Shown here: piece after piece, positions 650 through 60,391 of the stretch
Layout: each line of letters opens with the position of its first letter
How positions within the stretch are numbered: the stretch's first letter is position 1
Assembly: GCA_035221665.1 (NCBI GenBank)
Contig: CM069160.1
Span: 7,688,001-7,752,000 of the forward strand
From: Okamejei kenojei
Taxonomy: Eukaryota
Reading direction: 5' to 3'
DNA: 64,000 nucleotides
The notes under the pieces: model-generated
What the model saw: only the letters and a program-made list of their open reading frames with translations
Databases searched by the model: none
What the model was told of the DNA's origin: nothing
Made by a program: the position numbers and the translations under genes

Positions 650-3600
650 CTATCTCCCTCGCCGCCACCGTTCCTCCTGGCCCTGCCTCTTCTCTACACT
701 ACACCCTCCCTCACCGTCTCTCCCCTCTCTCGCCATCCCACACCTGCCGCAGACTGGCCTCTAGTACCTCCCTCCCCTACACTCGCTCCCTCTCTCATTG
801 ACTCCTCTCCTCGCGCCCTCCCGCTCTACCCTCCCCTCTCCCCTCCCCTTCTACCTCCCCTCTCCCTTCCCTCTCTCCCGCTCTCCCTCCTACTCTCCCT
901 CACCCTCTCCCTTTCACCTCACCCCTCCCGCGCTCTACCTTCCCCATCCCCCTTTCCTCCCCGTCTTTCCTCTCCTCTTCCTATTCCCCTCTCCTCCCCA
1001 CCTCTCTCCACTTATTTTTTCCCCTTCAACTTCCCTCTCCCCACTTTCTACCCTCCCTTATCCCTCTTCTACCATCCCCCTCCCGCCTCTATCTACCCCG
1101 CATCTCCCCTCCCTCCCCGAATCCCTCCCCTCATCCTCCTTCCCTCTCTCCTTCTTCCCTCCCCCCCTCTCACCGCCCCCTGCCCTCCCCCTCTACCTCC
1201 CTCCCATCTCCTCCTCCTCCCTCCACTCTACATCCCCTTCCTCCCCTCCCGCTCTTCCGTCCATCCTCCGCTACCTCGCCCTCTCCCATTCCCACTCTCC
1301 CCTCACACTCCTCCCCCCCTCTCGCACCTGCCCCTCTCGTCCCTCCCCCTCTCGCCCCTCCCCCTCTTCCATTCTCCTCACCGCCTTTCGTCCCCTGCCC
1401 CCTCCCCCCCTCCCCTCCCCTATCCTCACCATCTCTCCCCTCACCATCTCCCCTCCCCCTCCCACCTCCTTCCCCCCTCCCTCCCCTCTCCCTCACCCTC
1501 GCCCCCTTCGCTCCGTTCTCCCCTCCCCCTCCAGCTCCCTGCCCTCTCGTCCTCCCCTCATCTCTCTCTCTTTCTCTCTCATCTCCCCCTCTCGCCCACC
1601 CTCACCCCCTCTCTCACCCTCCCTTAACCTTTTCTCCCTCTACCCCTCCACTCCCCTTTTCCCCTCCCCCTCTCCCCCTTTCGTCTCCCACCTCTCCCAT
1701 CCCACTCCTCTCCCCCTTTCCCCCCTCTCCATTCTCTCCCGCCTGCTCCCTCCTCTCTCCTCGACGTCACCTTCTCTCCCATCTTACCTCCCCATGTCAC
1801 CCATCCCCCGCTGCCCCTCCCCCGCCCCTCCTCCTCTCCCTCTTCCCTCCCTTATCCCTTCACCGTCTCTCCCCTCTCTCGCCATCCCACACCTGCCGCA
1901 GACTGGCCTCTAGTACCTCCCTCCCCTACACTCGCTCCCTCTCTCATTGAGATCCTCTCCTCGCGCCCTCCCGCTCTAACCTCCCCTCTCCCCTCCCCTT
2001 CTACCTCCCCTCTCCCTTCCCTCTCTCCCGCTCTCCCTCCTACTCTCCCTCACCCTCTCTCCCTTTCACCTCACCCCTCCCCGCGCTCTACCTTCCCCAT
2101 CCCCCTTTCCTCCCCGTCTTTCTCTTCTCTTCCTATTCCCCTCTCCTCCCCACCTATCTCCACTTATTTCCCCTCCAACTTCCCTCTCCCCACTTTCTAC
2201 CCTCCCTTTATCCCTCTTCTACCATCCCCCTCCCGCCTCCATCTACCCCGCATCTCCCCTCCCTCCCCGAATCCCTCCCCCTCATCCTCCTTCCCTCTCT
2301 CCTTCTCCCCCCTCTCACCGCCCCCTGCCGTCCCCCTCTACCTCCCTCCCATCTCCTCCTCCCTCCACTCTACATCCCCTCCCTCCCCTCCCGCTCTTCC
2401 CGTCCATCCTCCGCTACCTCGCCCCCTCCCATTCCCACTTTCCCCCTCACACTCCTCCCCCTCTCGCACCTGCCCCTCTCGTCCCTCCCCCTCTCGCCCC
2501 TCCCCCTCTTCCATACTCCTCACGCCTTTCGTCCCCTGCCCCCTCCCTCCCCTCCCCTATCCTCACCATCTCTCCCCTCACCATCTCCCCCTCCCACCTC
2601 CTTCCCCCCTCCCTCCCCTCTCCCTCACCCTCGCCCCCTTCGCTCCGTTTCCCCCCTCCCCCTCCAGCTCCCTGCCCCTCGTCCTCCCCTCATCTCTCTC
2701 TCTTCCCTCTCTCATCTCCCCCCTCTCGCCCACCCTCACCCCCTCTCTCCACCCCTCCCTTAACCTTTTCTCCTCTACCCCTCCACTCCCCTTTTCCCCT
2801 CCCCCTCTCCCCCTTTCGTCTCCCACCTCTCCCATCCCACTCCCTCCCTCCCCCTTCCCCCCTCTCCATTCTCTCCCGCCTGCTCCCTCCTCTCTCCTCG
2901 ACGTCACCTTCTCTCCCCATCTTACCTCCCCATGTCACCCATCCCACTGCCCCTCCCCCTCCCCTCCTCCTCTCCCTCTTTCCCTCCCTTATCCCTTCAC
3001 CCTCTCCCCCGCTTCCGCTCCCATTCTTCTCCCTTCCCTGCCCCTCTCTACCCGCCCTCACCCGCTCCTACCTCTCCAACCCTCCCTCTTCTCTCCCATT
3101 CCACACCGCTCCCCCCTCCTCTCCCCTTCCTCTCTTCCCCTCTTCCCCCCTCTCACACCTCCCCCTCGCTCTCCCCCTCCCATTAACCCCTCTGCCACTC
3201 CCTTCCATCTCCCCCCCATCCCCCTCACTTCACCCCCTCTCCCACACCCCTCCCCACAATCCCCTCACTCGCCTTCCCCCTCCTTCCCCTTTGCCCTCCC
3301 CATCTCACTTCCCCTCAACCCCCCTCTCCCCTCGCCCTCCCCAATCCTCTCACACTCCCTCCCCCCTCTCTCCACCCTCTCTCCTCCCTCACCCCTCCCA
3401 CCCTCCCGCCCCCTCCCTCTCTCCCCTCATCTCCCCCTCTCTCCCCTCCCCCTGCCGCCCGCCCCCTCCATCTCTCCCCGCGCCCTCTCTCCTCCCCTTC
3501 TCCTCTCTCCTCCCGCTCTCACCCCCTGTCGTTATATCCCCTCTCCTCCTTCTCTCACCTCCCCTCCCATCACCTCCCATCCCCCTCTCCCCTCCCCCCA

Positions 3601-6600
3601 TCCCCCCCCTCCCCCTCCCCTCCCCTCCCCTCCCGCTGCCCCCTCTCCCCTCCCTCTCCCCTCCCCCTCCCCCTCTCCCCGCTCTCCTCTACACCTCTCC
3701 CCACCCACCCTCACGCCTCTCCCTCCCTATCCGTCCCCCTCTCCCTCTCCCCTCCCCCCCTCTCCCTATACCCTCCCACTCCCCACTCCCCTCTCCCTCT
3801 CCCTCTCCCCCCCCCCCTCTCCTCTCCCCCTCTCCACTCCCCCACGCTACCAGGGGATTTCCACCGGTTTCACATTCGCTGCGAAGCTGCAGCGGGGCGG
3901 GGCTGCCAGCCGTGGCGCTGGCCAATGGAAGCAGAGCGCGGCTGTGAGTTAGTAGTTGCTTGGTAGAGCGAGGCTGTACAGGTTGAGTTTGTGTCTCTAA
4001 ATAACCCCGCCGCCGCTGTTGCTGTTGCTGCTGCCTAAACGCAGCGCGCACCCCTCCTATCCACCCCTCTCTCCCCTCCCCGATATACCGTATTTCCCGC
4101 CCCATGCCTTCGCTCTCCCTCTGCCCCTCACCAATTCTCCTCTCCCCACATCTCCCCCTCTCCTCTCCGGGAGGCTCCTCCCTCTACCCGCTCCACTCCC
4201 CCTCCCCCACTTTCCCCTCCCGCCCTCCGACTTCCGCCTCTCCTCTCCCCTCCCCCTCTCCTTCCCCCTCCTCCGCCTCCGCCTCTCCACTTCCCCATCC
4301 CCCTCCCCTTCCCCTTCCCCTCTGCCCCTCCCCTCTCTCCTTTCCTCTCCCCTTCCTACCCTCCACCTGTCTGCCCTCCCCGTCTCTAACCCCGCTCCAC
4401 CCTCCCCGTCTCTACCCCCCATCTCTCCCTCCCCACTCCTTCCCCCCTTTCCACCCCGTGCCTCCCCTCTCCCATCCTCTCCTCCCTCCGCTACACCCCA
4501 TCCCTCTCCCCATTCACCCCTCTCCTCGCGCCCCCTCCCCCCTTCCCCTCCCGCTCTACCTCCCCTCTCCCCTCCCTCTCTCCCGCTCTCCGTCCTACTC
4601 TCCCTCCCTTTCACCTCTCCCCTCCCCCCTCTACCTTCCCCTTCCCCCTTTCCTCCCCATCTCTCTCCCCTCTTCCTATTCCCCTCTCCTCCCCCACCTC
4701 TCTCCACTTATTTCCCCTTCCCCCTTCCCCCCTCTCCCCCGTCCCCCTCTCCCCCTCTCCCCCTCCCACCTTTCCACCCTCCTTTCCCCCTCTTCTACCA
4801 TCCCCCCCCCCGCCTCCCAGCTACCCCCCATCTCTCCTCCCTCCCCAATCCCTCCCCTCATCCTCCTCTTCGCCCTCCCTCTCCCTCCCCTCCCCTCTCT
4901 CACCGCCCCTGCCCTCCCCCTCTACCTCCCTCCGATCTCCTCCTCCTCCCCCTCCCCTCTACATCCCCTCCCTCCCCTCCCGCTCTTCCCGTCCCTCCTC
5001 CATTACGTCTCCCCCCTCCCATTCCCACTCTCTCCACTTACACTCTTCCCCCTCTCGCACCTGCCCCTCTCGTCCCTGCCCCTCTCGCCCCTCCCCCGTC
5101 TCCCGTACTCGTCACGCATTTCGTCCCTCTACCCTCTCCCCTCCCTAACCTCACCATCTTTCGCCCCTCCCCATCTCCCCCCTCCCACCTGCTTTCCCGC
5201 TCTTCCTCGCCCTCTCCCTCACCCTCGCCCCCATCTCTCCGTTGTCCCACAAGCTCCATGCCCTCTCCTCCTCCTCCTCTCATCACTCTCCCTCCCCCTC
5301 TCATCTTCCCCTCTCGCCCACCCTCACCCCCTCTCCCTCCCCCCCCCCTCTCCCTTAACCTTCTCTCCTCTACTCCTCCTCTCCCCTTCTCCACTCCCCC
5401 CCTCGTCTCCCACCCCTCCCATCCCACTCCTCTCGCTCTGCCCTCCCCCTCTCCATTCTCTCCCGCCTGCTCCCATCCGCTCTCCTCGCCGTCACCCTCC
5501 TCTCCCATCTTCCTCCCCATCTCACCCATCCCACTGGCCCCCCCTCCCCATGTCCTCTCCCTCCCTTCTCCCTTCACCCTCTCTCCGCTCCCTCTCCCAC
5601 TCTTCTCCCTCCCCTCCCCCCCTCTTTACCCGCGCTCACCCTCTCCTACCTCTCCACTCCTCCCCCTTCTCTCCCATTCCACACCGCTCCTTCCTTTCCC
5701 CTTCCCCTCAACCCTTTCCCTCTCTCCCCTCCCCCTCTCCTCTCCGCTCTACTCTCCCCTCCCCCCACTATCCCCCCTTCCCCTCCCCCCTCTCACTCCT
5801 CCCCCGCGCTCTCCCCCTCCCAGTAACCCCTCCACCGCTCCCCTCCATCTCCCTCCCCTCCCCCCACACTTCCCCTCACCCCCCTCTCCCCCCTCCCCCT
5901 CACCCTCCACTCACTCGCCCTCCCCTCCCTCCCTCTGCCCTCTCCATCTCCCACTCACCCCTCATCTCCCCTCTTCCCCTCGCCCAATCCTCTCACACCC
6001 TCCCTCCCCCCCTCCCGCCCCATCCCTCTCTCCCTCACCCTCTACCTCCCCCCTCTCTCCCCCCCGCGCCCCCCTCCTCTCTCCTCGCGCCTCTCTCTTC
6101 CCCCCCCACCTCTCTCCTCCCGCTCTCACCCCCTCTCGTTATCTCCCCCTCCCTCCTCCCCCCTCTCCCCACAACTCCCCTCCCGCCAGCTCCCCTCCCA
6201 CTCNNNNNNNNNNNNNNNNNNNNNNNNNNNNNNNNNNNNNNNNNNNNNNNNNNNNNNNNNNNNNNNNNNNNNNNNNNNNNNNNNNNNNNNNNNNNNNNNN
6301 NNNNNNNNNNNNNNNNNNNNNNNNNNNNNNNNNNNCTCCCACTCCCCTCCCACTTCCCTCCCACTCCCCTACCCCCCTCTCCTTTTCGCCTCCCCTCTCC
6401 CCTCCCCCCTCCACCCCCTCTCCCCTCTCCCCTTCCCTTCTCCACCTCGCTCCCCCTCTCCCCTCTCCCCCTTCCCCCTCCCCCTCCCCTCTCATCTCCC
6501 CTCCCCCTCTCCCCTCCCCCCTCTCCCTCTCCCTCTCCCCTCCCCCCCCCTCTCCCTCTCCCCCCCTTCCCCCTCCTCCCCTCCCCCTCCCCCCTCCCCT

Positions 6601-6680
6601 CTCCCCTCCCCCTCTCCCCTCCCCATCTCCCCTACCCCTCTCCTCCCTCCCCCTCTTCCCCTCCCACTCTCCCCTCCCCC
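650..6680. repeat. Polypyrimidine (C/T) low-complexity tract with internal ~1.15-kb and ~2.8-kb duplications
   Basis: The anchor CACCGTCTCTCCCCTCTCTCGCCATCCCACACCTGCCGCAGACTGGCCTCTAG occurs at ~712 and ~1861; the unique 200-bp block recurs at ~3841 and ~6678; N run 6204-6335. Confidence 0.85.
3853..3984 (-). promoter_or_regulatory. Distal inverted S-X-Y module with ISRE-like and NF-kB sites (copy 1, more diverged)
   Basis: GGGGATTTCC 3853-3862; GGTTTCACATTC ~3866-3877; CCAAT 3922; X1-like 3950-3963 lies 20 bp from Y; AACCT (minus) lies 16 bp from X. Confidence 0.55.
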
Positions 6681-6689
6681 ACGCTAGCA

Positions 6690-6821
6690 GGGGATTTCCA
6701 CCGGTTTCACCTTCGCTTCGAAGCTGCAGCGGGGCGCGACTGCCTGCCGTGGCTCTGGCCAATGGGAGCAGAGCGCGGCTGTGAGTCAGCAGTTGCTGGG
6801 TAGAGCGAGGCTGTACAGGTT
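6690..6821 (-). promoter_or_regulatory. Distal inverted S-X-Y module with ISRE-like and NF-kB sites (copy 2)
   Basis: Minus strand reads AACCT (6817-6821), 16 bp, CCCAGCAACTGCTG (X1, 6787-6800) overlapping TGACTCA (X2), 20 bp, CCCATTGG (Y, 6759-6766). GGTTTCACCTTC 6703-6714 and GGGGATTTCC 6690-6699 follow. Confidence 0.7.
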
Positions 6822-7057
6822 GAGTTTGTGTGTCTGGATAACCCCGCCCCCGCTGCTGCTACTGCTGCTGCTGCTGCCTAAAGGCAGCGCGCACCCCTTC
6901 TATTCAGTCCGCAGTGGACTGAATGCAGAACATGGACACCATAATCTGGAGGAGCAGCGGAACAGGCAGCATCTCTGGAGAAAAGGAATGGGTCCATTCC
7001 CGTGGGATGCTGCCTGTCCGTTTTTGTATCTATCTTCGGTTTAAACCAGCACCTTGG

Positions 7058-8500
7058 ACAATATACAATAGTTGTAGGGGTAGGCCATTCGGCCCTTCGA
7101 GCCAGCGCAGCCATTCACTGTGATCATGGCTGATCATCCACAATCAGTATCCCGTTCCTGCCTTCTCCCCATTTCCCTTGACTCCACTATTTTTAAGAGC
7201 TCTTTTTAACTCTCTCTTGAAAACTAGAGAGTTGGTCTGTACTGCCTTCTGAGGCAGAGAATTCCACAATTTCACAACTCTCTGGGTGAGAAACCGTTTC
7301 CTCATCTCCGTTTAAATGGCCTACACCTTATTCTTAAACCGTGTCCCCTGGTTCTGGGCTCCCTCAATATCGGGAACATGTTTCCTGCCTCCTGTCTATC
7401 CAATCCCTAAATAATCTTATACGTTTCAATGAGATCCCCTCATCCTTCTAACGTCCAGTGTATGCAAGCCCATTCGCTCCATTCTTTCAACAAATGACAG
7501 TCCCGCCATCCAGGGAATAAACGTTGTGAACCGATGCTGCACGCCCTCAAAAGCAAAAATGTCCTTCCTCAAATTTGGAGCCAAAAACTGCACACAATAC
7601 ACCATGTGTGGTCTCACTAGGGCCCTGTACAACTGCAGAAGGACCTCTTTGCTCCTATACTCAACTCCTCCTGTTATGAAGGCCAACATGCCATTAGCTT
7701 TCTTCACTGCCTGCTGTACCTGCATGCTTACTTTCATTGACTGATGAACAATAACGCCCAAGATCACCTTTTCCCAACTTGACGCCATTCAGATAATAAT
7801 CTGCCTTCCTGTCCTTGCCATCAAAGTGGATAACCTCTCATTTATCCACATTAAACTGCATCTGCCATGCATCTGCCCTCTTACCCAACCAATCCAAGTC
7901 ACCCTGCATCCTCATCGCATCCTCCTCACAGTTCACACTGCCACCCAGCGTTGTATCATCTGCAAATTTGCTAATGTTACGTTTAATCCCTTCATCTAAA
8001 TCATTAATATATATTGTAAATATCTGCGGTCCAAGCACCTAGCCTTGCTGTACCCCACTAGTCACTGCCTGCCATTCTGAACGGGATCCGTTAATCCCTA
8101 CGCTTTGTTTCCAGTCTGCCAACCAATTTTATATCCATGTCAGTATCCTACCCCCAATACCATGTGCACTAATTTTGCTAACTAATCTCTTATGTGGGAC
8201 TTCCTCAAAGGCTTTGTGAAAGTGCGGGTACACTGCATCCATTGGCTCTCCCATGTCCATTATCCTAGTTACATCCTCTGAAAATTCCAGAAGATTAGTC
8301 AAGCATGATTTTCCCTTCGTAAATCCATGCTGACTTGGACCGATCCTGTTACTGCTATCCAAATGTGCCGCTATTTCATCTTTTATGATTGACTCCAGCA
8401 TCTTCCCCATCACCAATGTCAGGCTAATTGATCTATAATTCACAGTTTTCTCTCTCCCGCTTTTCCTAAAAAGTAGGATAACCGAGGACCAGCCTGGAAG
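7058..8500 (-). mobile_element. 5'-truncated CR1-clade LINE (ORF2 RT remnant plus 3' end)
   Basis: Peptides [23 protein letters not shown] and LYRALVRPH in ORFs 8129-8818, 7838-8038 and 7426-7788; short-repeat tail at ~7058. Confidence 0.9.
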
Positions 8501-8809
8501 ACCCGGCTCGCCCGCCACGTATCGAGGACCCACGGGAACCCAGCTTGAGGGCCGCAGAGCAGACCGGCTGCGGGAGGGAGTGCACGGCCTCGACGGGGGA
8601 GTGGGCCGCTGGAGGCCCTGCAGCTGCCTGGGGCTTGGCTGGACCTGGCGCCGCTCCAAGAGGCCGAGCATGTGGACCAGACGCGGTGGAGCAGCGGTGG
8701 AGGACACCACGGCTACGCTTGGCCAGGCCGACCATGCAACGCCGCCAGGACAACGGGCCTTCACGGTCAGATCAAGATCCCTGCACTTACAACAACTGGG
8801 ACTTGAACA

Positions 8810-8996
8810 TGGCAACAAACTGGCAACTTTGTATTCTGTCTCACTGTACTACTGCTGTACACCAGCACTGTATCTACAATGCTTATCTAATATGTATCTA
8901 AGTGCTTATGTATAGTGATACTTGTACTAAACTGTGTACAAAAATGAATTTCCCTGTACCTCGGTACAGGTGGCAAATCAAGTACCAGACCATACC
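8810..8996 (+). mobile_element. LINE/SINE 3'-end fragment (L2-like tail)
   Basis: Terminal motif CTGTACCTCGGTACAGGTGGCAAA resembles the tails at ~60-112 and ~11760-11795. Confidence 0.45.
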
Positions 8997-9986
8997 TGTG
9001 CCAGTGCACTGTTCAGAAGGAGTGTCCGTGCCAGTGCACTGGACAGAGGGGGTGTCAGTGGACAGTCGTGTGACCAGTGACTCGTGGACATCGCTGTGAA
9101 TGTGGGAGCATCGTGGGGCTGAACTGGTCAGTCTGTGTGGGGTAGGGGCACGGGAGAGAGACTGCTCATCTCTCCTCGCCGAATAAAGACTGATTCTCTC
9201 GAGAGCAGGGCAGGGAGAGGGTGCTCTGATCACAAAGGACCTGTTGCCCTTCCGCCTCATCTCCATCTGCCTCTCCCTCTCTCTCTCTCTTGGTCTCACA
9301 GTACCTCGATACACATGAGAATAAACTTTGTCTTTTATTTTGCTTCTGCCTGTCCTCCACCCCGGAGCTCCCCCCCAACACTATGTNNNNNNNNNNNNNN
9401 NNNNNNNNNNNNNNNNNNNNNNNNNNNNNNNNNNNNNNNNNNNNNNNNNNNNNNNNNNNNNNNNNNNNNNNNNNNNNNNNNNNNNNNNNNNNNNNNNNNN
9501 NNNNNNNNNNNNNNNNNNNNNNNNNNNNNNNNNNNNNNNNNNNNNNNNNNNNNNNNNNGCTCTCTCTCTGCCCCTCTCTCCNNNNNNNNNNNNNNNNNNN
9601 NNNNNNNNNNNNNNNNNNNNNNNNNNNNNNNNNNNNNNNNNNNNNNNNNNNNNNNNNNNNNNNNNNNNNNNNNNNNNNNNNNNNNNNNNNNNNNNNNNNN
9701 NNNNNNNNNNNNNNTCTGTCAATCACACTTATCTCATTGTGTCTAACTCTCTCCCCCCATCTTTCTCTATGTCTGCCCCTCTCTTTCTCACATTCGCTGT
9801 GAATGTGGGAGCATCGTGGTTTTGTCCCGTTGTCTGTGCCTCTGTCCACCTCTCACTGTCCCACTGCCTCTCTCCCTTTCACCCTCCCACTCACTCACCC
9901 TGACAAACCTCTCTGACTGCTGCGCCTGTCCACGGCCCTGTCAGATCGTGTCTCTCTGCGTGATGCCACCAGCCAGCCCCTGCGCT

Positions 9987-10098
9987 GGGAAACTCCCCGT
10001 GGCTGGGCGCGGATCTGAGTCACTCCGTCCCAAGCGAAGCCGCAGCAGGAAACTGAAACAGAGAGAGCTGGAAACGCTTCAGTGGCGAGGCAGCGTCA
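9987..10098. promoter_or_regulatory. Candidate inducible enhancer: NF-kB + AP-1 + ISRE + CRE half-site
   Basis: GGGAAACTCCCC 9987-9998, TGAGTCA 10016-10022, GGAAACTGAAAC 10048-10059 and GCGTCA 10093-10098 in non-repeat GC-rich DNA. Confidence 0.6.
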
Positions 10099-10842
10099 CC
10101 GGAGAGCGGGGGATATCAATGTCCGCATCCCAACCCCCGCCCGGCTCCCTGCCGCAGATCAGAGCTGGAGGTGGGGGGAGGGGTGGAGGCGATGGACAAA
10201 GGCCGGTGTCGGCGTGGCCACAAGACACTGCAGTCGCTGGAATCTGGAAAGGGGATCCGTGGTGGAAACGGTGCATGTCGTAGTTTCAGGTGGAGACCCT
10301 GCATTCACAGACCCTGATGCTGAGTCTCAGTCTGAAACCACCAGAGACCTTTTTCTACCCCTTTCAACTCCCCGCTGAGTTCTTATCGGCTGCAGTTTCC
10401 TTTTAATAAAAAGTCATATAGCATGGAAGCATGGAAACAGGCCATTCGGCCCAAATCATTCATGCCGGCCCATATAAGCTAGTCGCATTTACCCACATTA
10501 GGCCCATACACCTCTAAGTATTTCCTATCCATGTATATGTCCAAGTGTCTCTAGTGCGCTTACAGTACTTGTCTCAACCACATACTCTGGCAGCTCGTTC
10601 CGTACCCACCACCCTCTGTGTAAAGAAATTGATCCTCAGCTTTCTATTAAATCTTGCCCCTCTCACCTTAAACCTTTTCTCTGCTTTTTGATTCACCGAC
10701 CCTGAGTAAATACTGTACATTCATCCTATCTTCCCGCCATCCCCTCAAAATGTTATACACCTGCATTAGTTCACCCCTCAGCCTCCTGCACTCCAAGGAA
10801 CACAATCATAGCCTGCCCAACCTTTTACCTGTAGTTCAGGCA

Positions 10843-11795
10843 TCGGAATCATCCTTCCACAACCAGAGATTAGTGCTGAACTATTATCTACCTCTTTGTT
10901 GACCCCAGGACTTCCCTTGATTGGACTTTGCTGGCGTTATCTAGCACGTTACTACACTATACATGATTCCCCCTCAATGTTCCTTTATCACGTATTACAC
11001 TGTAAATGGCTCGAGTGTAATCATGTGTTGTCTTTCTGCAGACTGGATACCACGCAACAAAAGCTTTTCACTGTAGAACATAGAAACATAGAACATAGAA
11101 ATAGGTGCAGGAGTAGGCCATTCGGCCCTTCGAGCCTGCACCGCCATTCAATATGATCATGGCTGATCATCCAACTTAGTATCCTGTATCTGCCTTCTCT
11201 CCATACCCCCTGATCCCTTTAGCCACAAGAGCCACATCCAAATCCCTCTTAAATATAGCCAATGAACTGGCCTCAACGACCTTCTGTGGCAGAGAATTCC
11301 AGAGACTCACCACTCTCTGTGTAAAGAATGTTTTCCTCATCTCGGTCCTAAAGGAATCCCCCCTTATCCTTAGACTGCGACCCCTTGTTCTTGACTCCCA
11401 CAACATCGGGAACAATCTTCCTGCATCTAGCTTGTCCAACCCCTTAAGAATTTTGTAAGTTTCTATAAGATCCCTTCTCAATCTTCTAAATCCCAGTGAG
11501 TACAAGCCGAGTCTATCCAGTCTCTCTTGATATGAAAGTCCCGACATCCCAGGAATCAGTCTGGTGAACCTTCTCTGAACCCCCTCTATGGCAAGAATGT
11601 CTTTCCTCAGATTTGGAGACCAAAATTGTACGCAATACTCCAGGTGTGGTCTCACCAAAACCCTGTACATCTGCAGTAGAACCTCCCTGCACCTATACTC
11701 AAATCCTTTCGCTATGAATGCTAACATACCATTTGCTTTCTTCACTGCCTGCTGCACCTGTGCACATGTGACAATAAACTAAACTAAACTAAACT
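10843..11795 (+). mobile_element. Non-LTR element with (TAAAC)n tail, itself interrupted by a CR1
   Basis: TSD AGGCA at 10838-10842 and 11796-11800; tail GACAATAAACTAAACTAAACT. Confidence 0.7.
11075..11760 (-). mobile_element. Young 5'-truncated CR1 LINE
   Basis: Uninterrupted ORF2 C-terminus (ORF 11176-11757) and (TTTCTATG)n-type tail. Confidence 0.92.
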
Positions 11796-12959
11796 AGGCA
11801 CTCGAGTCCTGGCAACATCCTCGTAAATATTCAATGCACTCATTCCAGCTTAATAGCATCGCTCCTGTAGCAGGGCGACCAAAACAGAACACAATACTCC
11901 AAGTGTGGCCTCACCAACATCTTGCACAACTGCAACGTCATCTCCCAGTCTCCAAACTCAATACGCTGACTGATGAAGGCCATTCCACCAAGAACCTTCT
12001 TCACCAGCCTATCGACCAGTGACACCACATTGTTGACGGAGGTCACGGGGCTGTGGGGTTAAAGTGTAGATGTCACGGGCTGTCAGGTTTAATCTTTTTA
12101 CCTGGGACAGGATGTACCTATGACAGATTGATGGGCCGGTCCCAGGGATGGAGGATGTGCCAACGAGCTGCGACTGAGTCGACTGAGAGCGGAGTCTCCA
12201 GAGTTTGTGAGCATGAGAGGGAGGTGACTGACTCTTACACAAAGCCCACGGGGCTGGACAAACTGTGTTCCCCCGGCTGAGGGGTCTGTGGCCAGGGGTC
12301 AGTCTCCGATCAAGGGGAGAAATGTCCACACTGAGAGGGGGTGGAGAATGTTTATAATCCTCACCCACAGAGCACTGTGGAAGCTGCGTCACCGAGAGCA
12401 TTCAATGTTCCCGATGTATTAATGTTGTTCCCCACAGACCAGGGAAAGGGGCGTGGGGTTGTGGGGGAGGGCTGGGACAGGGAGCGGGAGGCAGGGGTGA
12501 GGACAAAGACGGTGAGAGGGAGGAGGAGGTTGGGATGAGGATCGGTGGGAGTGAGAGCTGGAACAGGCAAGGAGAGGGCTGGGCTAGTGCCGGGCATGGG
12601 TGGGGAGGAGGAGATGAGAGAAGGTGAGCAAGGGAATAATAGGAGGGTGGGAAGGTGTGGGGAGGGGGGGTTGTGAGGGATTTGTGAAGTGGGCGCTAAC
12701 GTAAGGGAGCGGATAGAGAAGGGGAGGAAGAGATTAGGAGGGTAGGAAGAGGTGTGGAGTAGGAGGAGGGGATTGGAAGTGATGGTGAGGGGAGGAGGAT
12801 GGGGAGGGGGTAATAGTGGGGAAGGGAGCCCATGGAAGGAAGCGTGGGGAAGGAGGGGACAGGTGCAATACCTGTGAGAGATTTGAATCACGGCACCCAG
12901 CTTCATTCCTGTGATTTATGTCGAAGGGCCTCAGTCCTGAAACGTTGCCTGTGTTTCTC

Positions 12960-13705: not shown

Positions 13706-14310
13706 GAGGTTTATAAAACCATGGTGCAGAGTGCTGGTGTCAGCACGATGCTGTTACACTCCCGGGATTCCCCGGTCACCGTCCACAGTGCACAGTCCAA
13801 CCTCTCCCTGACCGCCGGCAGCCGCTTCCCACAAGCTCCGCCGTCAGCACGGACTGGCACGGATCCGTTCACTCCATCGTGAACCTCCCGGCCGCCTCTC
13901 CGGCCGAGGGAAGCGGAGAACATCACAGCTCCGTGTCCCAGGGTGGGGAATACAGACCGGGAACCTGTCACTTGCCGGCACCGACCTCACCCCATCACCG
14001 CGTTATACCGTGTAGGAAGGAACTGCAGATGCTGCTTTAAACTGAAGATAGACACAAAAACCTGCAGTAACTCAGCGGGTCAGACAGCATCTCTGGAGAG
14101 AAGGAATAGGTGATGTTTCGGGTCGAGACCCTTCTTCAGATGCTGTCTGACCCGATGAGTTACTCCAGGTTTTTGTGTCTATCCTCGTTGTTCTGGCTCT
14201 CTCCTCTCAAGCCCCGAGGCAGGGCCGCGACCCGAAACATGAAACATCCCTCTCCCTCCACAGATGCCACCCGACCCGTCAATGTGTTTCAACAGTCTGT
14301 TTCCTCTGCG

Positions 14311-15418: not shown

Positions 15419-15720
15419 CACTTTCGGTTTCATGAGCTAACCTGCCACCGACCCTGACGCGCTGCTCTACCCGGCAACCGGTGACGCGGCGGCAGCTCTG
15501 CTGCTGATTGGACAGACTGGGATATTTTTTACCAACTTCACGGGGCTCTTCTGCCCGGAGACCGGTGACTCACGGGCGGGCAGGACTGTGATTGGCCGCG
15601 GACACGGCGCCGACCAATCAGCGCGGGGTGCGGGGGCGAAGGGGGCGGGCGAGCGGAGCAGAGTGAATGCGCATGCGCCCCGGACTCGCAAACTCACTTC
15701 AACCTGAACAGTCGGGGGCG
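15419..15720 (+). promoter_or_regulatory. MHC class I promoter: ISRE + two tandem S-X-Y modules + extra CCAAT, GC box and NRF1-like site
   Basis: CACTTTCGGTTTCA 15419-15432. X1 CCCGGCAACCGGTG 15470-15483 with X2 TGACGC, 20 bp, CTGATTGG 15504-15511. Second X1 CCCGGAGACCGGTG 15554-15567 with TGACTCA, 20 bp, GTGATTGG 15588-15595. CCAAT 15614, GGGGCGGG ~15642, TGCGCATGCG ~15668. CpG-rich, no TATA. Confidence 0.85.
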
Positions 15721-15723
15721 ACG

Positions 15724-15790
15724 ATGCTGCGCCCGCTGCTGCTGCCGCTGCTGCTGCTGCCCGCCCTCCTGGCTGGAGCCCAGGCTGCAG
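15724..15790 (+). CDS. MHC class I heavy chain exon 1 (signal peptide)
   Basis: MLRPLLLPLLLLPALLAGAQAA+G; phase-1 donor CAG/GTGGGT splices in frame to GSHSL of the alpha1 exon. Linkage across 13.5 kb is inferred from phase and the S-X-Y promoter. Confidence 0.88.
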
Positions 15791-29261: not shown

Positions 29262-29522
29262 GCTCCCACTCGCTGCATTATTTCGCCACGGGGGTGGCCC
29301 CGGGCTGGGGGGTCCCTGAGTTCACGGTGGTCGGATACGTGGACGAGGAGCAGATTGGTCACTACGACAGCGACAGAGGGGACGTGGAGCCGCGGCAGCG
29401 GTGGATGGCGAAGAGTCAGTTCGCCGACTACTGGGAGCAGGAGACACAGAGGGCGCGGGGCTACGAACCGTGGTTCACGGCCAACATCCAGACCATGCAG
29501 CAGCGAACCAACCAGAGCGGGG
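29262..29522 (+). CDS. MHC class I heavy chain exon 2 (alpha1 domain)
   Basis: GSHSLHYFATGVAPGWGVPEFTVVGYVDEEQIGHYDSDRGDVEPRQRWMAKSQFADYWEQETQRARGYEPWFTANIQTMQQRTNQSG; TTCCAG acceptor, GTGAGA donor, 261 nt, phase 1/1; Y7, Y59, R84 and N86-Q-S equivalents present. Confidence 0.97.
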
Positions 29523-29649: not shown

Positions 29650-29929
29650 GGATCCACCACTATCCAGTGATGTTTGGCTGTGAGCTGCTGCGCTCGGACG
29701 GCTCCACCACCGGGTTCAATCGCAGTTTCGGCTGGGAGCGGAGAGGTACTTGATCAGCTCTCGACAAGGAGCACAATGAGTGGTGACGCCCGTCTCCAAA
29801 CATGGGTTGTTGACCAAACACAAGTGGAGCGGGACACCGCAACGCCCATACTTGGAAGGACTAACCTGAGGAAGAGTGCATCGAGTGGCTGCAAAATTTG
29901 TCCCACCGGACAGAGTCAACTCACCCCCT
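29650..29929 (+). CDS. MHC class I exon 3 (alpha2 domain), frameshifted as assembled
   Basis: TTGCAG acceptor; GIH..VMFGCEL.RSDGSTTGF, DKEH, VTPV, LTKHKW (TKHKW 29813-29827), EEECIEWLQ and GQSQLTP in shifting frames; GTGAGT donor at 29930. Confidence 0.9.
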
Positions 29930-29949
29930 GTGAGTGGGTTCAGTCATGT

Positions 29950-32900
29950 TGCCTCCACCCCCCTCACTTCCACTACCCACCCCCTCTCCATCTGTCGCCG
30001 TCGCCCCACTCGCTCCTCTCCCCCTCTCCCTCCCCCTCATCCTACCTCACTCACTCCCCTCTCGTCTCGCTCTCCCCTCTCCCTCTCTACCCCTCTCCCT
30101 CTCTACCCCTTTCTCTCTGCCCCACTCCTCCACCCCTTTTCTAGTTCCCCCCTCCGTCCCCCCCTGTTCCTCTTTCTCTCCCCCAGTCCCCCTCTCTCCC
30201 CTCCCTCTCCTCTCTCCCTTCTCTCTGCCCCACTCTACCACCCTTTCTAGATCCCCTTCCCTCCTCCCCCCTCCCCCCAATTCCCCCGCCCTCCCTTCCT
30301 CCCCTTTACCCTCCCCCTTCCCTCCACTTCCCTCCCCTTCCCTCCCCTTCCTCCCCCCCCCCCCCCCTTTGTTTTCCCTTACCCTCCGTCTCCCACTTCC
30401 CTNNNNNNNNNNNNNNNNNNNNNNNNNNNNNNNNNNNNNNNNNNNNNNNNNNNNNNNNNNNNNNNNNNNNNNNNNNNNNNNNNNNNNNNNNNNNNNNNNN
30501 NNNNNNNNNNNNNNNNNNNNNNNNNNNNNNNNNNNNNNNNNNNNNNNNCCCTCTCTCTCACACTCCCTCTCCCCCTCCCTCCCTCCCTCCACCCTCCCTC
30601 CCCCTCCCTCCCCCCTTCTCCTCCCCCTCTCTCTCCCCCTCCCTCCCCCTCTCTCGTCCCCCCCTGCCCCCCATCTTTCCTCCCCCTCCCTCCCTCCCCC
30701 CTCTCTCTCCCCCTCCCTCCCCCCTCTCCTCCCCCTCCCCTACCCCCTCTCTCTCCCCCTCTGCTCCTCAACTCTCTCCTTCCCCCTCCCTCCCCCTCTC
30801 CCTCCCCCCTCCCACCCCCTCTCTCCCACCTCTACCCCCCCTCCCTCCCTCCCTCCCTCCTCCCTCCCTCCTCTCTCTCCCCCTCTCTCTCTCCCCTCCA
30901 CTTCCCCCCCTCTCTACTCTCCCCTCTCTCTCCCCCTCACCCTCCCCCTCTCTCCCTCCCCCTTCTTCTCCACCACCCTCTCTCCCCCCCTCTCTCTCAC
31001 CCCCTCCCTACCCCCCCTCCCCCCCTCCCCCCCTCCCCTCCCCCTCCTCTCTCCCCCCCCTTTCCCACTTTCCTCTCTACCCTTCTCTCTCCCCCCTCGC
31101 CCTCCCCCCCTCCCTCCCCCCCTCCCTCCCCCCTCCCCCCCCCTCCCTCCCTCCCTCTCTTCCCCCCACTTTCCCACTTTCCTCTCTACCCTTTCCCCCC
31201 CTATCTCTCCCCTTCCTCCCCACCTCCTCCTCCTCCGTCTCTCCCCTATCTCTCTCCCATCTCTCTCCATCTCACACACACATCTCACCTCTATGCAACA
31301 CTGCACACCATTGCCCTAACCCCACCTCCCGCTCCCCTTTCTCTATCTCGCTCCCTTTTCTCACCACTCCTAACCTCTCCACGCCCCTCTCTTATCTCAG
31401 CTCTCTCTTCCTCACTCGCCCCGGCCGTCTTTCCCCCCATCTCTTCCCCCCCGTTTTTCCCCTCTCTCCCCCTCTCGCTCTTCCATCCCCTCTCCTCTCA
31501 CCCTCTCCATCTTTCATCTCTTTCAAACTAGCAAGTAGAGAGGGATAGAGCGAACAGAACTATCAATCATCTTCATGAGAATAAAACGCTAACACAACAA
31601 CTATCCCTCATCAAATCTCTACATCCACAGAGATCCCCAGCAACTCATATCAGCGACTTTATACTCCCCTATATCCGCCCCCCTCTTCCCGTCCCCCCCC
31701 CTCCTCAACCCTCGATCCCCCCTATCTCCACCCCCCTATACCCCATCCACACCCTACCCAATCTCTTCACACAAATATAATACACGAACAAAATACCCAA
31801 ATCTCTACCACACGAGAACATAAAAACATCCACACCTTATAAACGCCCTTATCCACCCTATATACCCCAGCCTCACAACCGACTACACACCTACTAACCC
31901 CCATATCAACACCTCGATCCCACCATATACCCCTCGATAAGACCAAAGATAGACCATCCAATCTCCCCCAATATCCCCACCCTAGCCCCAAATCATACCT
32001 CATTAGCACCCCTATATCACCCCCTTTATTCCCAACCTATATCCCACGATCTCTACCCAACGCCGAGAAACAAAGCTATACTAAAACGACCTCATAAAAC
32101 GAACTCTAAAAGAACTCTAAACCGAAATCTCAAGACAGCATCCCCCGAACTATCCAACGACATAGAAACCGTAAGATAAAAAGAAATATAAAAAATAGTA
32201 TGACGAAAGAGAGAAAACAGATAGAAAATATATAAACATGCATAGATCAAAAAATATAAACACGGGAGAAAAAAAAATATATAATATCTATACAAAATAA
32301 GAAACATATATAAAATACTCCCAATAAAAGATAAAGAAAACCGACCACGCCCATCTAGCTAACCACTACAAAGCAAACATAACATACCCAAAACCTTCAA
32401 AATCTATCACTCCTAATCTCTCGGACCCGCTCACGGTCCACCTTTCTTTCAAACATATCTCCATAGACATCTATATATCTCCCCCTCTCAAGCACCCTAG
32501 ACCCCCCTCTGACAAACCTATAAACCAGCTCCCTAAGAAACAAGAGCCAACGAAAAAAAAACATATAAACCATCACATAACGTCGCACCCTTCTAAATAT
32601 CGATCCCTTGTTATCATCTCCATTATTACAATCTAAACAATTATATCTCACCCTACATCTCTCCACTTTCGCTCCTCTCCTCCCCTCTCTCTCTCAAAAT
32701 CGCTCTATATCGATTGCAAAGGACTCTCCCCAATCTACATCTACACTCTCTCTCATTAATGATACTCGAAAATCTCGCACTCAACCCCTATATATCGCTG
32801 AAAATATATAGAAAAGAGAGTGGAAATAAAATTCTATTTCCTCATAATCTCTATATTTACCTTCTATCGTACACTTTATCTATAAAATACAACTATAATC

Positions 32901-35900
32901 TACAAAAGTAAGAAAATAATAATAAGTCAATATAAAATTGATAATAACAAATATAGCTAAATAGAACTATATGAAGATACAATATAACATATCTAATCCC
33001 CACTACTAGAATAACACTATTCTATCAACCAGAATACTCTCTATACACTATCTCTCCCACTCTACAAATCTATAACAAAGATATACCCAAGAGCTCACAA
33101 ATATAGAAGACACTCTACAAACCCTAATATCACAAACGATATAAAAATCTATAAACCACTCTATCCCAAACTATCTCACACCTATACCCTCTAATCCCTC
33201 GCTACCTAAACCACTCACTTCGTCAACCCTTACTACTAACACCATTCTTACCACCCCGTCTCCAACATTATAACAAAATATAGAAAAACATAACAAAACA
33301 AAAATATAACACAGGAAGAACAAATAGAAGACCTATCCAACAGTAATAAAACGAGAAGCACTATACATCTATCATCCCTTGTTATATATAAAATATTCCA
33401 CATATCCAAAACAATGATATAGAAAAAATTGCAGATAATGTTAGAGATAAGAAGATATAGAGAAAATAGATTAGGAGAGAATATAGACATCATAGATATC
33501 GTACAATATATCTCATACGCTGCCAACTATCTGAACCATATCTTTCCACTATCATTCTCCTACGCTATCAATCTGCAGAAATCGCTACCCCAAGATACAA
33601 ACCTAGATAAACATATATAGAAAAAATATATCGCCAATAACAATCTAAAACAATCGCCCAATCTCCCAACCCAACTCTCAACCCCTCTCCCCCCCTCTCC
33701 CAACTACTATGCACCAAATGACGAGCACAATATTCGATGCGTAACTCTCTCATGTGGGGCATAGAGATCTACACAAGTAGCGATAAAAAGATATATGAAA
33801 AACGATCGATGCAAAAAGAATGGAAATAGATCTGAAAAAAATATATGAATAAAAGGGATATGAAAACAATATATTACAACACGATATATGCAAAAGATCT
33901 CTGAACACATAACGATGAAAAAATAATATGCAATAAATAAAGAAGGAAAATACAAGATGAAAAAATACCATCTGAAAAACCAAGATGACACCAAAAGATA
34001 TGAAACCATAATATGCCCCATATAATTATCTAAAAAAATCTATATAATTATAGAAATTACATCTATAGTCACGATTCCAATATTCATATATAAAAAATCT
34101 ATCTAACACAGATATACCATCATATAGCCCCCCTCTACTCCTCTCACTCATCAATCAGCAAAATGCCTAAATTTTACTAATCTGACCCCGATACATTCTA
34201 TGATCTTCTCTTGTCATTCCAGTCTCTATCACCCTCCCACTACATCTCTCAATTAGATCAACAGTCTCCATTGATCGCTAAAAAAATCCCATAGATCCTA
34301 TCTATATATACTAGTACATTCGCGATATTTGATATACACAAATGTGAGATATCAACATCAGTATAATAAAAAATGTAGAAAAAATGAATCAGTAAATAAG
34401 ACATTTCTAAAACACACGATAGCTCATATATAAATCTAGAACACCCCTCGCGCCCCCATCGATCCCCTCTATCTCACCCTAGATCGCACCCTCCACCTCA
34501 CACCCTCTTCCACCCCCCATCTCATCTGCCCACCTCCCTTCGCCCCCGCCCTATGCCCCCCTACATTTGCCAACACAATCTGCCCCACTCCCTCTGCCAA
34601 AACTCACTATGCACACAATAACCATATGCCAACATAATCTGCCAATACCCACTCTGTGCACCACCACGGCAAAAAATATATGCAAACATATTATTTATCA
34701 AAATATATATCTAATTTACTATTCATTACCTCTCGACTACGAAAATCACCTCTATATCAACCTATCGCTTTCACTAACCAACTAGACAAAACCTCTCTCC
34801 CTCAATCGCCATACGCCACCCGTCATAGTCGTATATAACGATAAACCATCCTTAATTTCCTACTATGCCCACCCTAATTCTCTCTATTTTCTCGACCGCT
34901 CTCCACCACCACCTACTTACTCTCACTCTATTCCCGATCCCTTGCTCTACTAACCATCCCCATCTATCCTCTCTCTCTCTATACATTATCTCTCCCCTTT
35001 GCGCTCAACAACTCCCCCGCAATACACATTCTCCCATACTCTCTCCTCACCTCTCCACCTTTCTCAACCCAATCTATAGACACCTAGATAAAATAAGAAC
35101 CCTCTCCCCCAGCTCTCCCCACTCTACCCCCTCTACCACCCTCATAAAACATCTACCCCATCTCTCCCCCCCTCATCCCCCTTTCTCTCGCCAGTCTCAT
35201 CTGCCAATCTATCGCACCAATTCTCCCTCCCCCTCTCTCTATTCCCCTCTAATTGTACCCTCTGCCACAACCGTCTACTTCTCTTCTAATAGCTCTCCCA
35301 CCCCCCCATATCTCGACTCTGTCCCCCTCCTCTCTAACCATCCGCCCTCTCTCCCCTCTCTACTCTCCATTTCTCTCTCCACTCCCCCATCTCACTCCAT
35401 CCCATAATACCCCTAGTCTTCCCCCTCACTCCTCCCCCCCCGTCTTTATCCAAACGTTCTATTTACGACTCTCACTGCGCGTACCCCATCTCTCTCTCAT
35501 CCCTCCCCCTCTCTTCCCCCTCTCTCCCCCACTCTCCCCCCCCCTACTCCCCCTCTCACGTACCCTCTCACCACAATCTCACCACCCCTCGAATCCACCA
35601 CTATCACACCTTATCCCCCCTCCCAACACCATCTCCCACCACACCTCTCCCACGTAATCCACCGACGCCCTCCCTCTCACACATCTCTCATCCATTGTTC
35701 TCTCTCCAATCTTCCAATCACACCCCCTTCTCTCTCCCACCAAGCTCTCTCACAGTTCTCTCTCCTCGTCTCACTCTCCCTCTCCTCTCTGATCTCCTCT
35801 CCCACCTCGCTCTCGCCCCCCCTCTCTCTCCTGCCCCTCTCTCTCTGTCTCTGCCCCCTCTCTTCCACTTCTCATTCTCATCCTACTCTCAAGCTGCATC

Positions 35901-36893
35901 CCTCGCTACCCCCCCTCGCCTCCCCCCCTCGCTCCCCCTCGCTCTCCCCTCGCCACTCTCACCCCTCTCGCCCACTAGTCTAACCCCCCCCTCTCTCCCC
36001 CCTCCTCCACCCCTGCTCTCCCCCTCTAGGCCCCTTCTCTCACCCTCTTTCGCTGCTTTCACCTCTCTCAATTTGCATCTATCTCTCCCACCTCATCGCG
36101 ACCCATATATACTCTCTGCACCCCTCTCGCTGCCCCCCTCTCCTCTGCCCCCTCTCTCGCCCCCCGCTCTCTGCCCCCCTGTCTCTGCCCCCCTGTACTC
36201 TGCCCCCCTATCTCTGCCCCCTCTCTCTGCCCCCCTCCACTCTGCCCCCCTCCCTCTGCCCCCCTCCCTCCCCTGGCCCCACTCCCTCTGCCCCCTCCCT
36301 ATGGCACCCCCTCTGGCCCCCCGCTCTGCCCCTCTCCTGCCCACCTCTCATTCCTCCCACCCTCTCTATCTCCATCTCTCCCTTCCATATCTCTCCTCTC
36401 TTTCCCCCCTCTCTCCCCCCTCTCTCCTCCCCCCTCTGCTCCCCGCCTCTCCCCCCATCTACTCCTCCACTCTCAACCATCTAAAATTTCCTCGTCTGTG
36501 CCCCCCTCCGTCTCTCTCCTTGTTATCCCGTCTCTCCTCTCCCCCCCCCTCCATCTCTCACTCTCTCCCCTCCCCCACTTGCTCTATACCCATCCCCCTC
36601 TATCCTCTCTCTCTCTCTATAACTTCTCTCGCAAATTTTCTATCGACACGACATCTTAACTCACCCTCACTCCACCTTCATACCTAATCTCATCCGTCAC
36701 TACCCTTTATCACCCCCATCTATCTCCATATCTCCCTCTATCACTCTCTCCCCCCTCGCTCAACCCTCGCTACCCCGCTCTCCCCTCCGCTCGCTCCCGC
36801 CCACTCTCCCCCATATCGCCCCATCATCCCCCCCTCTACTCTGCCCAACTCTCATCATGCCCCCTCCCCTCTGCCACACCTCTTCTCTGTAGA
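29950..36893. other. Low-complexity / low-quality sequence (C/T tracts and a G-depleted A/C-rich stretch)
   Basis: Extreme strand-specific G depletion with no recognisable repeat or exon. Confidence 0.7.
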
Positions 36894-37393
36894 NNNNNNN
36901 NNNNNNNNNNNNNNNNNNNNNNNNNNNNNNNNNNNNNNNNNNNNNNNNNNNNNNNNNNNNNNNNNNNNNNNNNNNNNNNNNNNNNNNNNNNNNNNNNNNN
37001 NNNNNNNNNNNNNNNNNNNNNNNNNNNNNNNNNNNNNNNNNNNNNNNNNNNNNNNNNNNNNNNNNNNNNNNNNNNNNNNNNNNNNNNNNNNNNNNNNNNN
37101 NNNNNNNNNNNNNNNNNNNNNNNNNNNNNNNNNNNNNNNNNNNNNNNNNNNNNNNNNNNNNNNNNNNNNNNNNNNNNNNNNNNNNNNNNNNNNNNNNNNN
37201 NNNNNNNNNNNNNNNNNNNNNNNNNNNNNNNNNNNNNNNNNNNNNNNNNNNNNNNNNNNNNNNNNNNNNNNNNNNNNNNNNNNNNNNNNNNNNNNNNNNN
37301 NNNNNNNNNNNNNNNNNNNNNNNNNNNNNNNNNNNNNNNNNNNNNNNNNNNNNNNNNNNNNNNNNNNNNNNNNNNNNNNNNNNNNNNNNNNNN
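36894..37393. other. 500-N scaffold gap
   Basis: Exactly 500 N, a round placeholder length, separating the two oppositely oriented arms. Confidence 0.95.
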
Positions 37394-45799: not shown

Positions 45800-46167
45800 T
45801 TAAGGGGTTGGACAGGCTAGATGCAGGAAGATTGTTCCCGATGTTGGGGAAGTCCAGGACAAGGGGTCACAGCTTAAGGATAAGGGGGAAATCCTTTAAG
45901 ACCGAGATGAGAAAGACTTTCTTCACACAGAGAGTGGTGAGTCTCTGGAACTCTCTGCCACAGAGGGTAGTTGAGGCCAGTTCATTGGCTATATTTAAGA
46001 GTGAGTTGGATGTGGCCCTTGTGGCTAAGGGGATCAGAGGGTATGGAGAGAAGGCAGGTACGGGATACTGAGTTGGATGATCAGCCATGATCATATTGAA
46101 TGGCGGTGCAGGCTCGAAGGGCTGAATGGCCTACTCCTGCACCTAATTTCTATGTTTCTATGTTTCT
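45800..46167 (+). mobile_element. Short young CR1 3' insertion in a single array unit
   Basis: TSD AGGAGATC at 45792-45799 and 46168-46175; empty site in the sister unit at ~49431-49440. Confidence 0.9.
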
Positions 46168-59410: not shown

Positions 59411-60068
59411 CCAGTTTACAAGGATATATGTGAACCGGCCTTTAGGTATTTATCCACCTTAACATGCCATAAAAATAAAGAATGCAAAGTGCTGGAGTAG
59501 CTCAGCGGATCAGGCAGCATCACCGGTGAATATGGATCGCTAACGTTTCGATTCAAGACCCTTCTTCAGACAACATCGATACGTGACGTTTTGGATTGAG
59601 ATCATTCTTCAGACTCTCCAGAAGCTGCCTGACCTGCCGAGTTACTCCAGCACTTTATGTCCTCTTGTGTAATAACCAACCAGCATCTGCAGTTCTTTGT
59701 TTCTACAGCACCGCCTCTTTTATAATGTGGATTCATTCCAAGAAATGGCTGTTCATTTCCTGTAATTCTTGGCTTCTATGGCCTTCTGTACTGTAAATAC
59801 AGATGCAACCTCACCAATCTCCTGTGGATTCACACACATCCTGCACGGATTCTAATATCTCAAAAATTACCCATTTGCTCTTTACATACTTGTTGACACT
59901 CTCAGGATACGCCTTTAACTTATCTGCCAAATCCCTCATCTCCCTTATTTACCCGCCTGATCTCCCTGTTTCAATGTACCAGGAGTTATTATGCTGAGCC
60001 CAGCCCGACATTGCCCATCAGCCACTGTCGGGGACTGGGTTGGCAGCCCATCACTGCCCCTCACCCAC

Positions 60069-60110
60069 CTGCAGCCTGGGCTCCAGCCAGGAGGGCGAGC
60101 AGCCCCCGAC
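60069..60110 (-). pseudogene. MHC class I paralog exon 1 remnant lacking the ATG
   Basis: Minus strand GTCGGGGGC|TGCTCGCCCTCCTGGCTGGAGCCCAGGCTGCAG/GTGGGT; 38 bp including the ATG are missing relative to 15711-15790. Confidence 0.88.
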
Positions 60111-60391
60111 TGTTCAGGTTGCGGTGAGTTTGCGAGTCCGGGGCGCATGCGCATTCAGTCTGCTCCGCTCGCCCGCCCCTTTCGCCCCCGCACCCCGCGC
60201 TGATTGGTCGGCGCCGTGTCCGCGGCCAATCACAGTCCTGCCCGCCCGTGAGTCACCGGTCTCCGGGCAGAAGAGCCCCGTGAACTGATAAAAAATATCC
60301 CAGTCTGTCCAATCAGCAGCAGAGCTGCCGCCGCGTCACCGGTTGCCGGGTAGAGGAGAGCGCGGCAGGTTAGCTCATGAAACCGAAAGTG
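60111..60391 (-). promoter_or_regulatory. Paralogous MHC class I promoter (ISRE + both X-Y modules retained)
   Basis: TGAAACCGAAAGTG 60378-60391; S 60367-60371, 16 bp, X1 60337-60350, 20 bp, Y 60309-60316; second X-Y at ~60226-60267. Confidence 0.85.

Follow-up and report, generated by a model that had tools for sequence, protein, structure and literature searches.

Organisation of the locus

The window, by which we mean the whole 64-kb stretch of DNA analysed (C30:7688001-7752000, in an assembly of 2.76 Gb), carries two copies of an MHC class I gene and, far upstream of the first of them, two short S-X-Y modules on the minus strand, each accompanied by ISRE-like and kB sites. The names of the boxes and of their binding factors (RFX at X1, CREB/ATF at X2 and NF-Y at Y, with NLRC5 depending on the S box) follow excerpts of PMC4374748. 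ISRE and kB sites are auxiliary sites of class I promoters through which interferon and TNF inputs arrive (PMC7922096, in excerpt). The features are, in window coordinates:

660..3844, no strand: C/T-rich low-complexity repeat, past copy A in the S-to-Y direction; no exon recognised
3845..4045, minus strand: module copy A, with S-X1-X2-Y, GC box, ISRE-like and kB sites; X2 and X1 substituted
Boxes of copy A: kB 3853-3862, ISRE-like 3866-3877, GC box 3894-3902, Y 3922-3926, X2/X1 3945-3963, S 3980-3984
4060..6680, no strand: C/T-rich low-complexity repeat that separates copies A and B; 132 N included
6630..12377, no strand: segmentally duplicated block, common to TRIM-upstream loci at 17.55, 17.09 and 18.13 Mb of C30
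6682..6888, minus strand: module copy B, with intact S-16-X1-X2-18-Y, ISRE-like and kB sites; GC box altered
Boxes of copy B: kB 6690-6699, ISRE-like 6703-6714, Y 6759-6763, X2/X1 6782-6800, S 6817-6821
8481..8800, plus strand: fragment of a dispersed transposon that duplicated together with the module; serves as neutral control and tree marker
9987..10100, plus strand: second motif cluster, inside the duplicated block; all 22 of its copies in the genome are on C30
15420..15511, plus strand: proximal class I promoter, with ISRE, S, 26 bp, X1-X2 and Y
15724..15790, plus strand: class I exon 1 (leader peptide)
29262..29522, plus strand: class I alpha-1 exon, open; PF00129, E 2.5e-22
29652..29930, plus strand: alpha-2 exon of class I, differing from the paralogue at 6.55 Mb by about 25 small indels (noisy assembly or decay)
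60309..60390, minus strand: second class I promoter copy, S-16-X-Y

On the minus strand each module reads S (AACCT), 16 bp, X1, X2, 18 bp, Y (ATTGG), GC box, ISRE-like site and kB site. The 18-bp gap is counted from the end of X2, and the X-Y distance is about 18-22 bp depending on the definition used (for reference spacings, see excerpts of PMC4374748 and PMC7753138). The two copies are tandem duplicates of about 200 bp each, 88% identical. Copy B has the fixed order, orientation and spacing that define an S-Y module. In copy A, X2 is TAACTCA instead of TGACTCA and X1 is also changed, and this copy is probably decaying. With respect to the class I ATG (15724), the S-X-Y order is inverted and the distances are 11.8 kb for copy A and 8.9 kb for copy B. 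The box coordinates thus confirm the first-pass annotation in placing S-X-Y modules with ISRE-like and kB sites, inverted, 9-12 kb upstream of a class I gene. The interval assigned to them there (3853..6821) does hold the modules, but the feature itself is only about 2 x 200 bp, the remainder being C/T-rich repeat. A spaced S-X-Y pattern has three matches in the 64-kb window (A, B and the promoter at 60371) and none in 100 order-2 Markov simulations, the pattern having been composed after the sites had been seen. From sequence evidence, we take modules A and B to be real, non-random and probably constrained.

The modules were first described as sharing the geometry of the local class I promoters and their GCTCTAC lead-in to X1. 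The S-X gap of 16 bp is indeed that of the minus-strand promoter, but the gene downstream of the modules has a gap of 26 bp in its own promoter. The plus-strand promoter has this lead-in unchanged, the other one with a single mismatch. The S box of the module is CAACCT, of which the AACCT core is shared with the local class I promoters. The wider gap of the plus-strand promoter (15439-15470) exceeds by 10 bp, or about one helical turn, the 16-bp gap found in its paralogues (window 60371 and C30:7658616). An isolated kB site, GGGATTCCCC, is found at 13764-13773, 1.7 kb upstream of this promoter.

The two copies of the class I gene are arranged as an inverted duplication, both facing a 500-N gap (36894-37393), around which the sequence is error-rich and of low quality (29650-47000). 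A simple motif scan of the retrieved DNA found no alpha-3 exon. In the second copy, exon 1 (60050-60110, minus strand) lacks the ATG and the first codons, and its promoter is preceded, at 6.5-9 kb, by two degraded modules past the right end of the window. Compared with the first copy, the second has an insertion of about 4.6 kb (53245-57818), probably a retroelement.

Between the modules and the first class I gene, the duplicated block includes the second motif cluster, with kB-like (9987-9998), AP-1 (10016-10022), ISRE-like (10048-10059) and CRE-like (10093-10100) sites. Homology to the three TRIM-upstream loci stops at 12377, and from about 12860 the window matches two module-less class I loci. 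Because the matches switch between these two points, the upstream DNA of the window joins TRIM-type and class I-type loci. To the left of the modules, the divergently transcribed MHC gene that had been suggested as their alternative target was not found. The 25 kb to the left of the window showed neither a RING nor a class I exon, and the 86 ORFs of at least 75 aa in that DNA gave only a LINE endonuclease, the scan being blind to exons shorter than 75 aa and the flank having a 500-N gap 20 kb to the left.

Distribution of the module

With about 1.6 Mb of C30 retrieved around known sites, at least 71 copies of the module were counted, essentially all on this contig. The perfect spaced S-X-Y is present in 28 of the 71, including 18 with ISRE and kB sites as well, and has been lost in 43. 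The first-pass annotation had allowed that the block might be a dispersed repeat common outside MHC loci, and the searches speak against this: on C30 were 31 of 31 matches to a kB-ISRE pattern (control 0), 56 of 57 to an X-box pattern (control 0) and all 40 of the candidates scored, out of 66, in a DNA search with the module. A genome-wide S-X pattern, without Y, placed 42 of 51 matches there (control 2), and class I domain matches (PF00129) were on C30 in 17 of 17 cases. The search does detect dispersed repeats, because the control transposon 1.6 kb from the module gave 2320 candidates, with matches on many contigs. Class II profile searches (PF00969, PF00993) returned no match, and their controls were silent too.

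The flanks of the module, comprising a LINE, the transposon and the second cluster of kB, AP-1, ISRE and CRE sites, co-duplicate with it. Since the copies are confined to C30 and the flanks travel along, we rejected a mobile or dispersed element. Judged by its sequence context, the module is the cargo of a young segmental duplication.

Gene partners of the module

Clustering of ORFs showed TRIM exons near many of the copies, and RING, B-box, coiled-coil and SPRY domains were confirmed. A RING pattern gave 210 matches, and 99 of the 100 listed were on C30. The approximately 210 RING-exon matches, at 3-31 Mb of C30, represent a young TRIM/B30.2 family, 88-97% identical among the copies compared.

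For a test of association, 67 module positions were reduced to 36 clusters and set against 105 RING positions (99 listed and 6 from retrieved DNA), which leaves half of the TRIM family outside the test. In 14 of the 36 clusters a RING exon lies downstream, on the same strand and within 15 kb (3.0-13.4 kb). The expectation was 2.6 clusters, and 0 of 5000 random shifts reached 14. Other arrangements numbered none (downstream, opposite strand), one (upstream, same strand) and four (upstream, opposite strand). The DNA from element to RING exon is collinear in several loci, and since the links thus share descent, the 14 count as an association and not as separate events.

Five clusters precede class I promoter copies by 6.5-17 kb, in inverted orientation, at 4.52, 7.41, 7.66, 7.70 (the window) and 7.75 Mb. 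Four other class I promoters (6.54, 3.02, 1.56 and 1.16 Mb) have no module in 24-37 kb of upstream DNA, so it is present at five of the nine class I promoter loci examined. For about 17 of the 36 clusters no gene link was found, and no retrieved locus has a TRIM gene and a class I gene together at one module. Complete modules make up 8 of the 14 TRIM-leading copies vs 1 of the 11 class I-linked copies, a contrast confounded by the noisy assembly of C30 at 7.4-7.9 Mb. Most of the module-linked class I copies show only a promoter and exon 1 in the retrieved DNA. The arrangement from which the first-pass annotation proposed a long-range class I architecture is therefore present at five promoters, but four others do without it and TRIM is the commonest gene partner (14 of 36 clusters). 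On these grounds we rejected an enhancer private to class I genes.

The class I locus at 6.54 Mb has two peculiarities of its own. A 2.7-kb insertion (C30:6542785-6545506) splits the S-X-Y part of its promoter from the start-site part, and a TRIM gene 40 kb upstream of the promoter faces away.

Enhancer or promoter

The strict S-to-Y sense orientation of the module toward the RING exon raises the question of whether the module might be a promoter. In such a scheme, it would be the upstream promoter of a TRIM subfamily, with transcription starting immediately beyond the kB site and a brief non-coding exon leading into a G/A-rich intron, and the copies in the window would be orphans left behind by the loss of their TRIM gene. 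The RING exons open with a splice acceptor and 5' UTR, and CpG observed/expected at the module is 0.68-0.91 vs 0.40 for the window, as this scheme would have it. There is also a site at C30:1581533 in the same order (S-X, GC box, ISRE) that is followed by a splice donor. However, past the kB site of the module there is only simple repeat and LINE, with donor-like sites that are weak and no clear exon, and the module-to-RING distance varies fourfold. The module-linked TRIMs do not form one clade, and they have a proximal 5' segment in common with 6 of 19 module-less TRIMs. In none of these 19 was an own X box found in the 1-12 kb of upstream DNA scanned. Because of the repeat and LINE after kB, the shared proximal segment, the lack of an own X box and the non-monophyly, an add-on upstream enhancer is favoured, and we consider the promoter scheme unlikely.

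The site at C30:1581533 is itself promoter-like, consisting of S-16-X, a degenerate Y, GC box, ISRE and the splice donor. It lies head-to-head with the class I gene at 1.56 Mb, 19 kb apart, and the gene behind it was not recognised by eye from ORFs.

Origin of the module

The S-Y core aligns to the local class I promoter with a score of 52, including an 8-nt spacer match, whereas the shuffles reached a maximum of 36 (0 of 500). No alignment above shuffles was seen between the module and the second motif cluster, the C30:1118664 cluster or the C30:1581533 promoter, the last two being other S-X modules of C30. There are thus hints that the module may derive from a class I promoter by an old duplication. 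However, the ungapped spacer identity between the two is 12/38, which is the chance level.

These alignments bear on a further alternative, in which the module began as an inverted duplication of the S-Y part of the class I promoter and served as a distal enhancer for class I, in the manner of the S'-Y' copy of HLA-DRA, which is also inverted, before TRIM genes acquired it through rearrangement. The inverted position upstream of five class I promoter copies would fit, as would the proximal promoter, which is without an adjoining kB site that the module would supply. The four class I promoters without the module and the truncated state of most of the linked copies, one of them without an ATG, do not fit, nor does the complete module in only one of 11 class I-linked copies. 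The co-duplicated transposon gives a similar picture. Its tree is shallow, with a few percent per branch and one firm clade (the 16-18.7 Mb TRIM region, support 100), and when rooted with copies from other contigs has support under 70 at key nodes. The TRIM-linked blocks are on several of its branches but the class I-linked blocks on one weak branch (support under 70). We hold a class I enhancer at the root of the family to be improbable. A piece common to the upstream DNA of the 6.54 and 3.02 Mb class I genes was tried as a history marker and rejected, as it is a LINE.

Conservation and decay

All comparisons among copies are subject to the bias that the copies were collected by their likeness to the module, which favours apparent conservation. 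Across an alignment of 36 copies, the boxes S, X1, X2 and Y have 1.03 changes per column, compared with 2.0 for non-CpG spacers (p 5e-5). For the 26 copies of at least 90% identity, the figures are 0.24 and 0.59 (p 0.014). With ISRE and kB added, the contrast is weaker (p 0.003 for the 36 copies, p 0.11 for the best 26). The 63-bp S-Y span has zero non-CpG changes in 11 of 14 co-duplicated units, the other three having changed, while the LINE flanks of the same 14 units are 3.5-13% from consensus. However, the spacers in the invariant units are as unchanged as the boxes, and gene conversion would give the same pattern. On a flank-based tree of all 14 units, the S-Y span takes 29 steps, and 301 of 1066 flank windows are equally low. 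Per site, this amounts to 0.46 steps vs 0.53-0.74 in the flanks, so the span is not clearly more conserved. With the three degraded units removed, a post hoc choice, the span takes 2 steps and 0 of 1066 flank windows are as low. A CpG decay test gave no clear difference between the module and the co-duplicated transposon.

Conservation is therefore visible between boxes and spacers and in 11 of 14 units, but weak in the full 14-unit flank test. Most copies look protected and some decay, with gene conversion and search bias as alternative sources of the pattern. A reading of the copies as inert passengers, carried along by a duplication that is young and prone to rearrangement and conserved through its recency and gene conversion, is quite improbable: the shallow radiation of the blocks, the loss of the perfect S-X-Y in most copies, the many copies without a nearby gene and the non-significant full-set test would agree with it, but not the near invariance of the S-Y span beside a LINE and transposon that have diverged in the same units, nor the slower change of X1, X2 and Y than of spacers.

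Relation to known systems

The comparisons below rest on excerpts of the papers cited. In mouse T cells, NLRC5 is found at only 11 sites, 9 of them at promoters (Ludigs 2015, PMC4374748). The SXY of mouse class I, B2m and Psmb9/Tap1 genes has the same S-X-Y order, S-X gap of 16 bp and a comparable X-Y gap, but here there are 28 perfect modules, lying kilobases from coding exons and with ISRE/kB downstream of Y (PMC4374748). The S box of BTN3A2 is given as CAACGTT (PMC7753138), and that of the module reads CAACCT. At HLA-DRA, a distal S'-Y' enhancer at -2.3 kb exists in addition to the proximal module of this MHC gene, an arrangement similar to what is seen here (PMC2677874). Unlike at HLA-DRA, the modules here are near a class I gene, at 9-12 kb, include ISRE and kB sites, number about 70 copies and are more often beside TRIM. 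S-Y modules have been tested in both orientations (PMC1802633).

At human TRIM26, CIITA and RFX bind an X/X2-Y-like imperfect module with no evident S box (Krawczyk 2008, PMC2278383), and the BTN3A promoters are driven by NLRC5, with the Y box reversed (Dang 2021, PMC7753138). In these cases, as proposed here, TRIM/B30.2 genes linked to the MHC come under the control of its enhanceosome. However, the modules there are single, proximal and imperfect, whereas those described here are complete and distal and have multiplied along with a TRIM family that is large and young. In both human and chicken, clusters of TRIM genes are linked to the MHC (PMC8813856), and the non-classical class I genes of elasmobranchs are all in the MHC (PMC10751288). 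In the literature searched, which included few subscription papers, we found no report of S-X-Y modules in elasmobranchs, nor at the TRIM genes of these fishes.

On C30 itself, a free-standing X-X2-Y, ISRE and kB cluster at C30:1118664, with no adjacent exon, has the same box order as the module and is on the same chromosome, but its ISRE/kB sites are on the S-X-Y strand, and it belongs to a separate family.

Proposed function

The reading that we favour, tentatively, is that modules A and B are members of an S-X-Y/ISRE/kB family of at least 71 copies on the class I-bearing chromosome, which would function as an infection-inducible enhancer mainly for a subset of the TRIM genes. The enhancer block would have spread by segmental duplication with the TRIM expansion, and it is also found head-to-head with one class I sub-lineage. 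By analogy with mammals, RFX on X1, CREB/ATF or AP-1 on X2 and NF-Y on Y would form a platform for NLRC5, whose recruitment would occur via the class I-like S box, and the IRF and NF-kB sites would add responses to interferon and TNF. In the window, the block is head-to-head with the class I gene, with repeats in the place of its TRIM side, and copy B could boost that gene.

A broader, doubtful extension is that the family constitutes a mass-duplicated switch, by which NLRC5 would co-induce an antiviral TRIM battery and class I genes across 30 Mb of the MHC chromosome. Such a regulon would have come from segmental duplication of one enhancer block and not from transposons. The S-X-Y modules of mammals are rare and tightly targeted, in contrast to about 70 copies directed toward TRIM genes and one class I sub-lineage. 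If true, a family of innate antiviral genes in cartilaginous fish would have recruited the MHC enhanceosome, an echo of the single human cases TRIM26 and BTN3A. The TRIM family offers a built-in experiment in its near-identical paralogues (88-97%) with and without the module.

At C30:18088000-18222000, about a dozen copies occur in 130 kb around an inversion, with TRIM genes at one end only.
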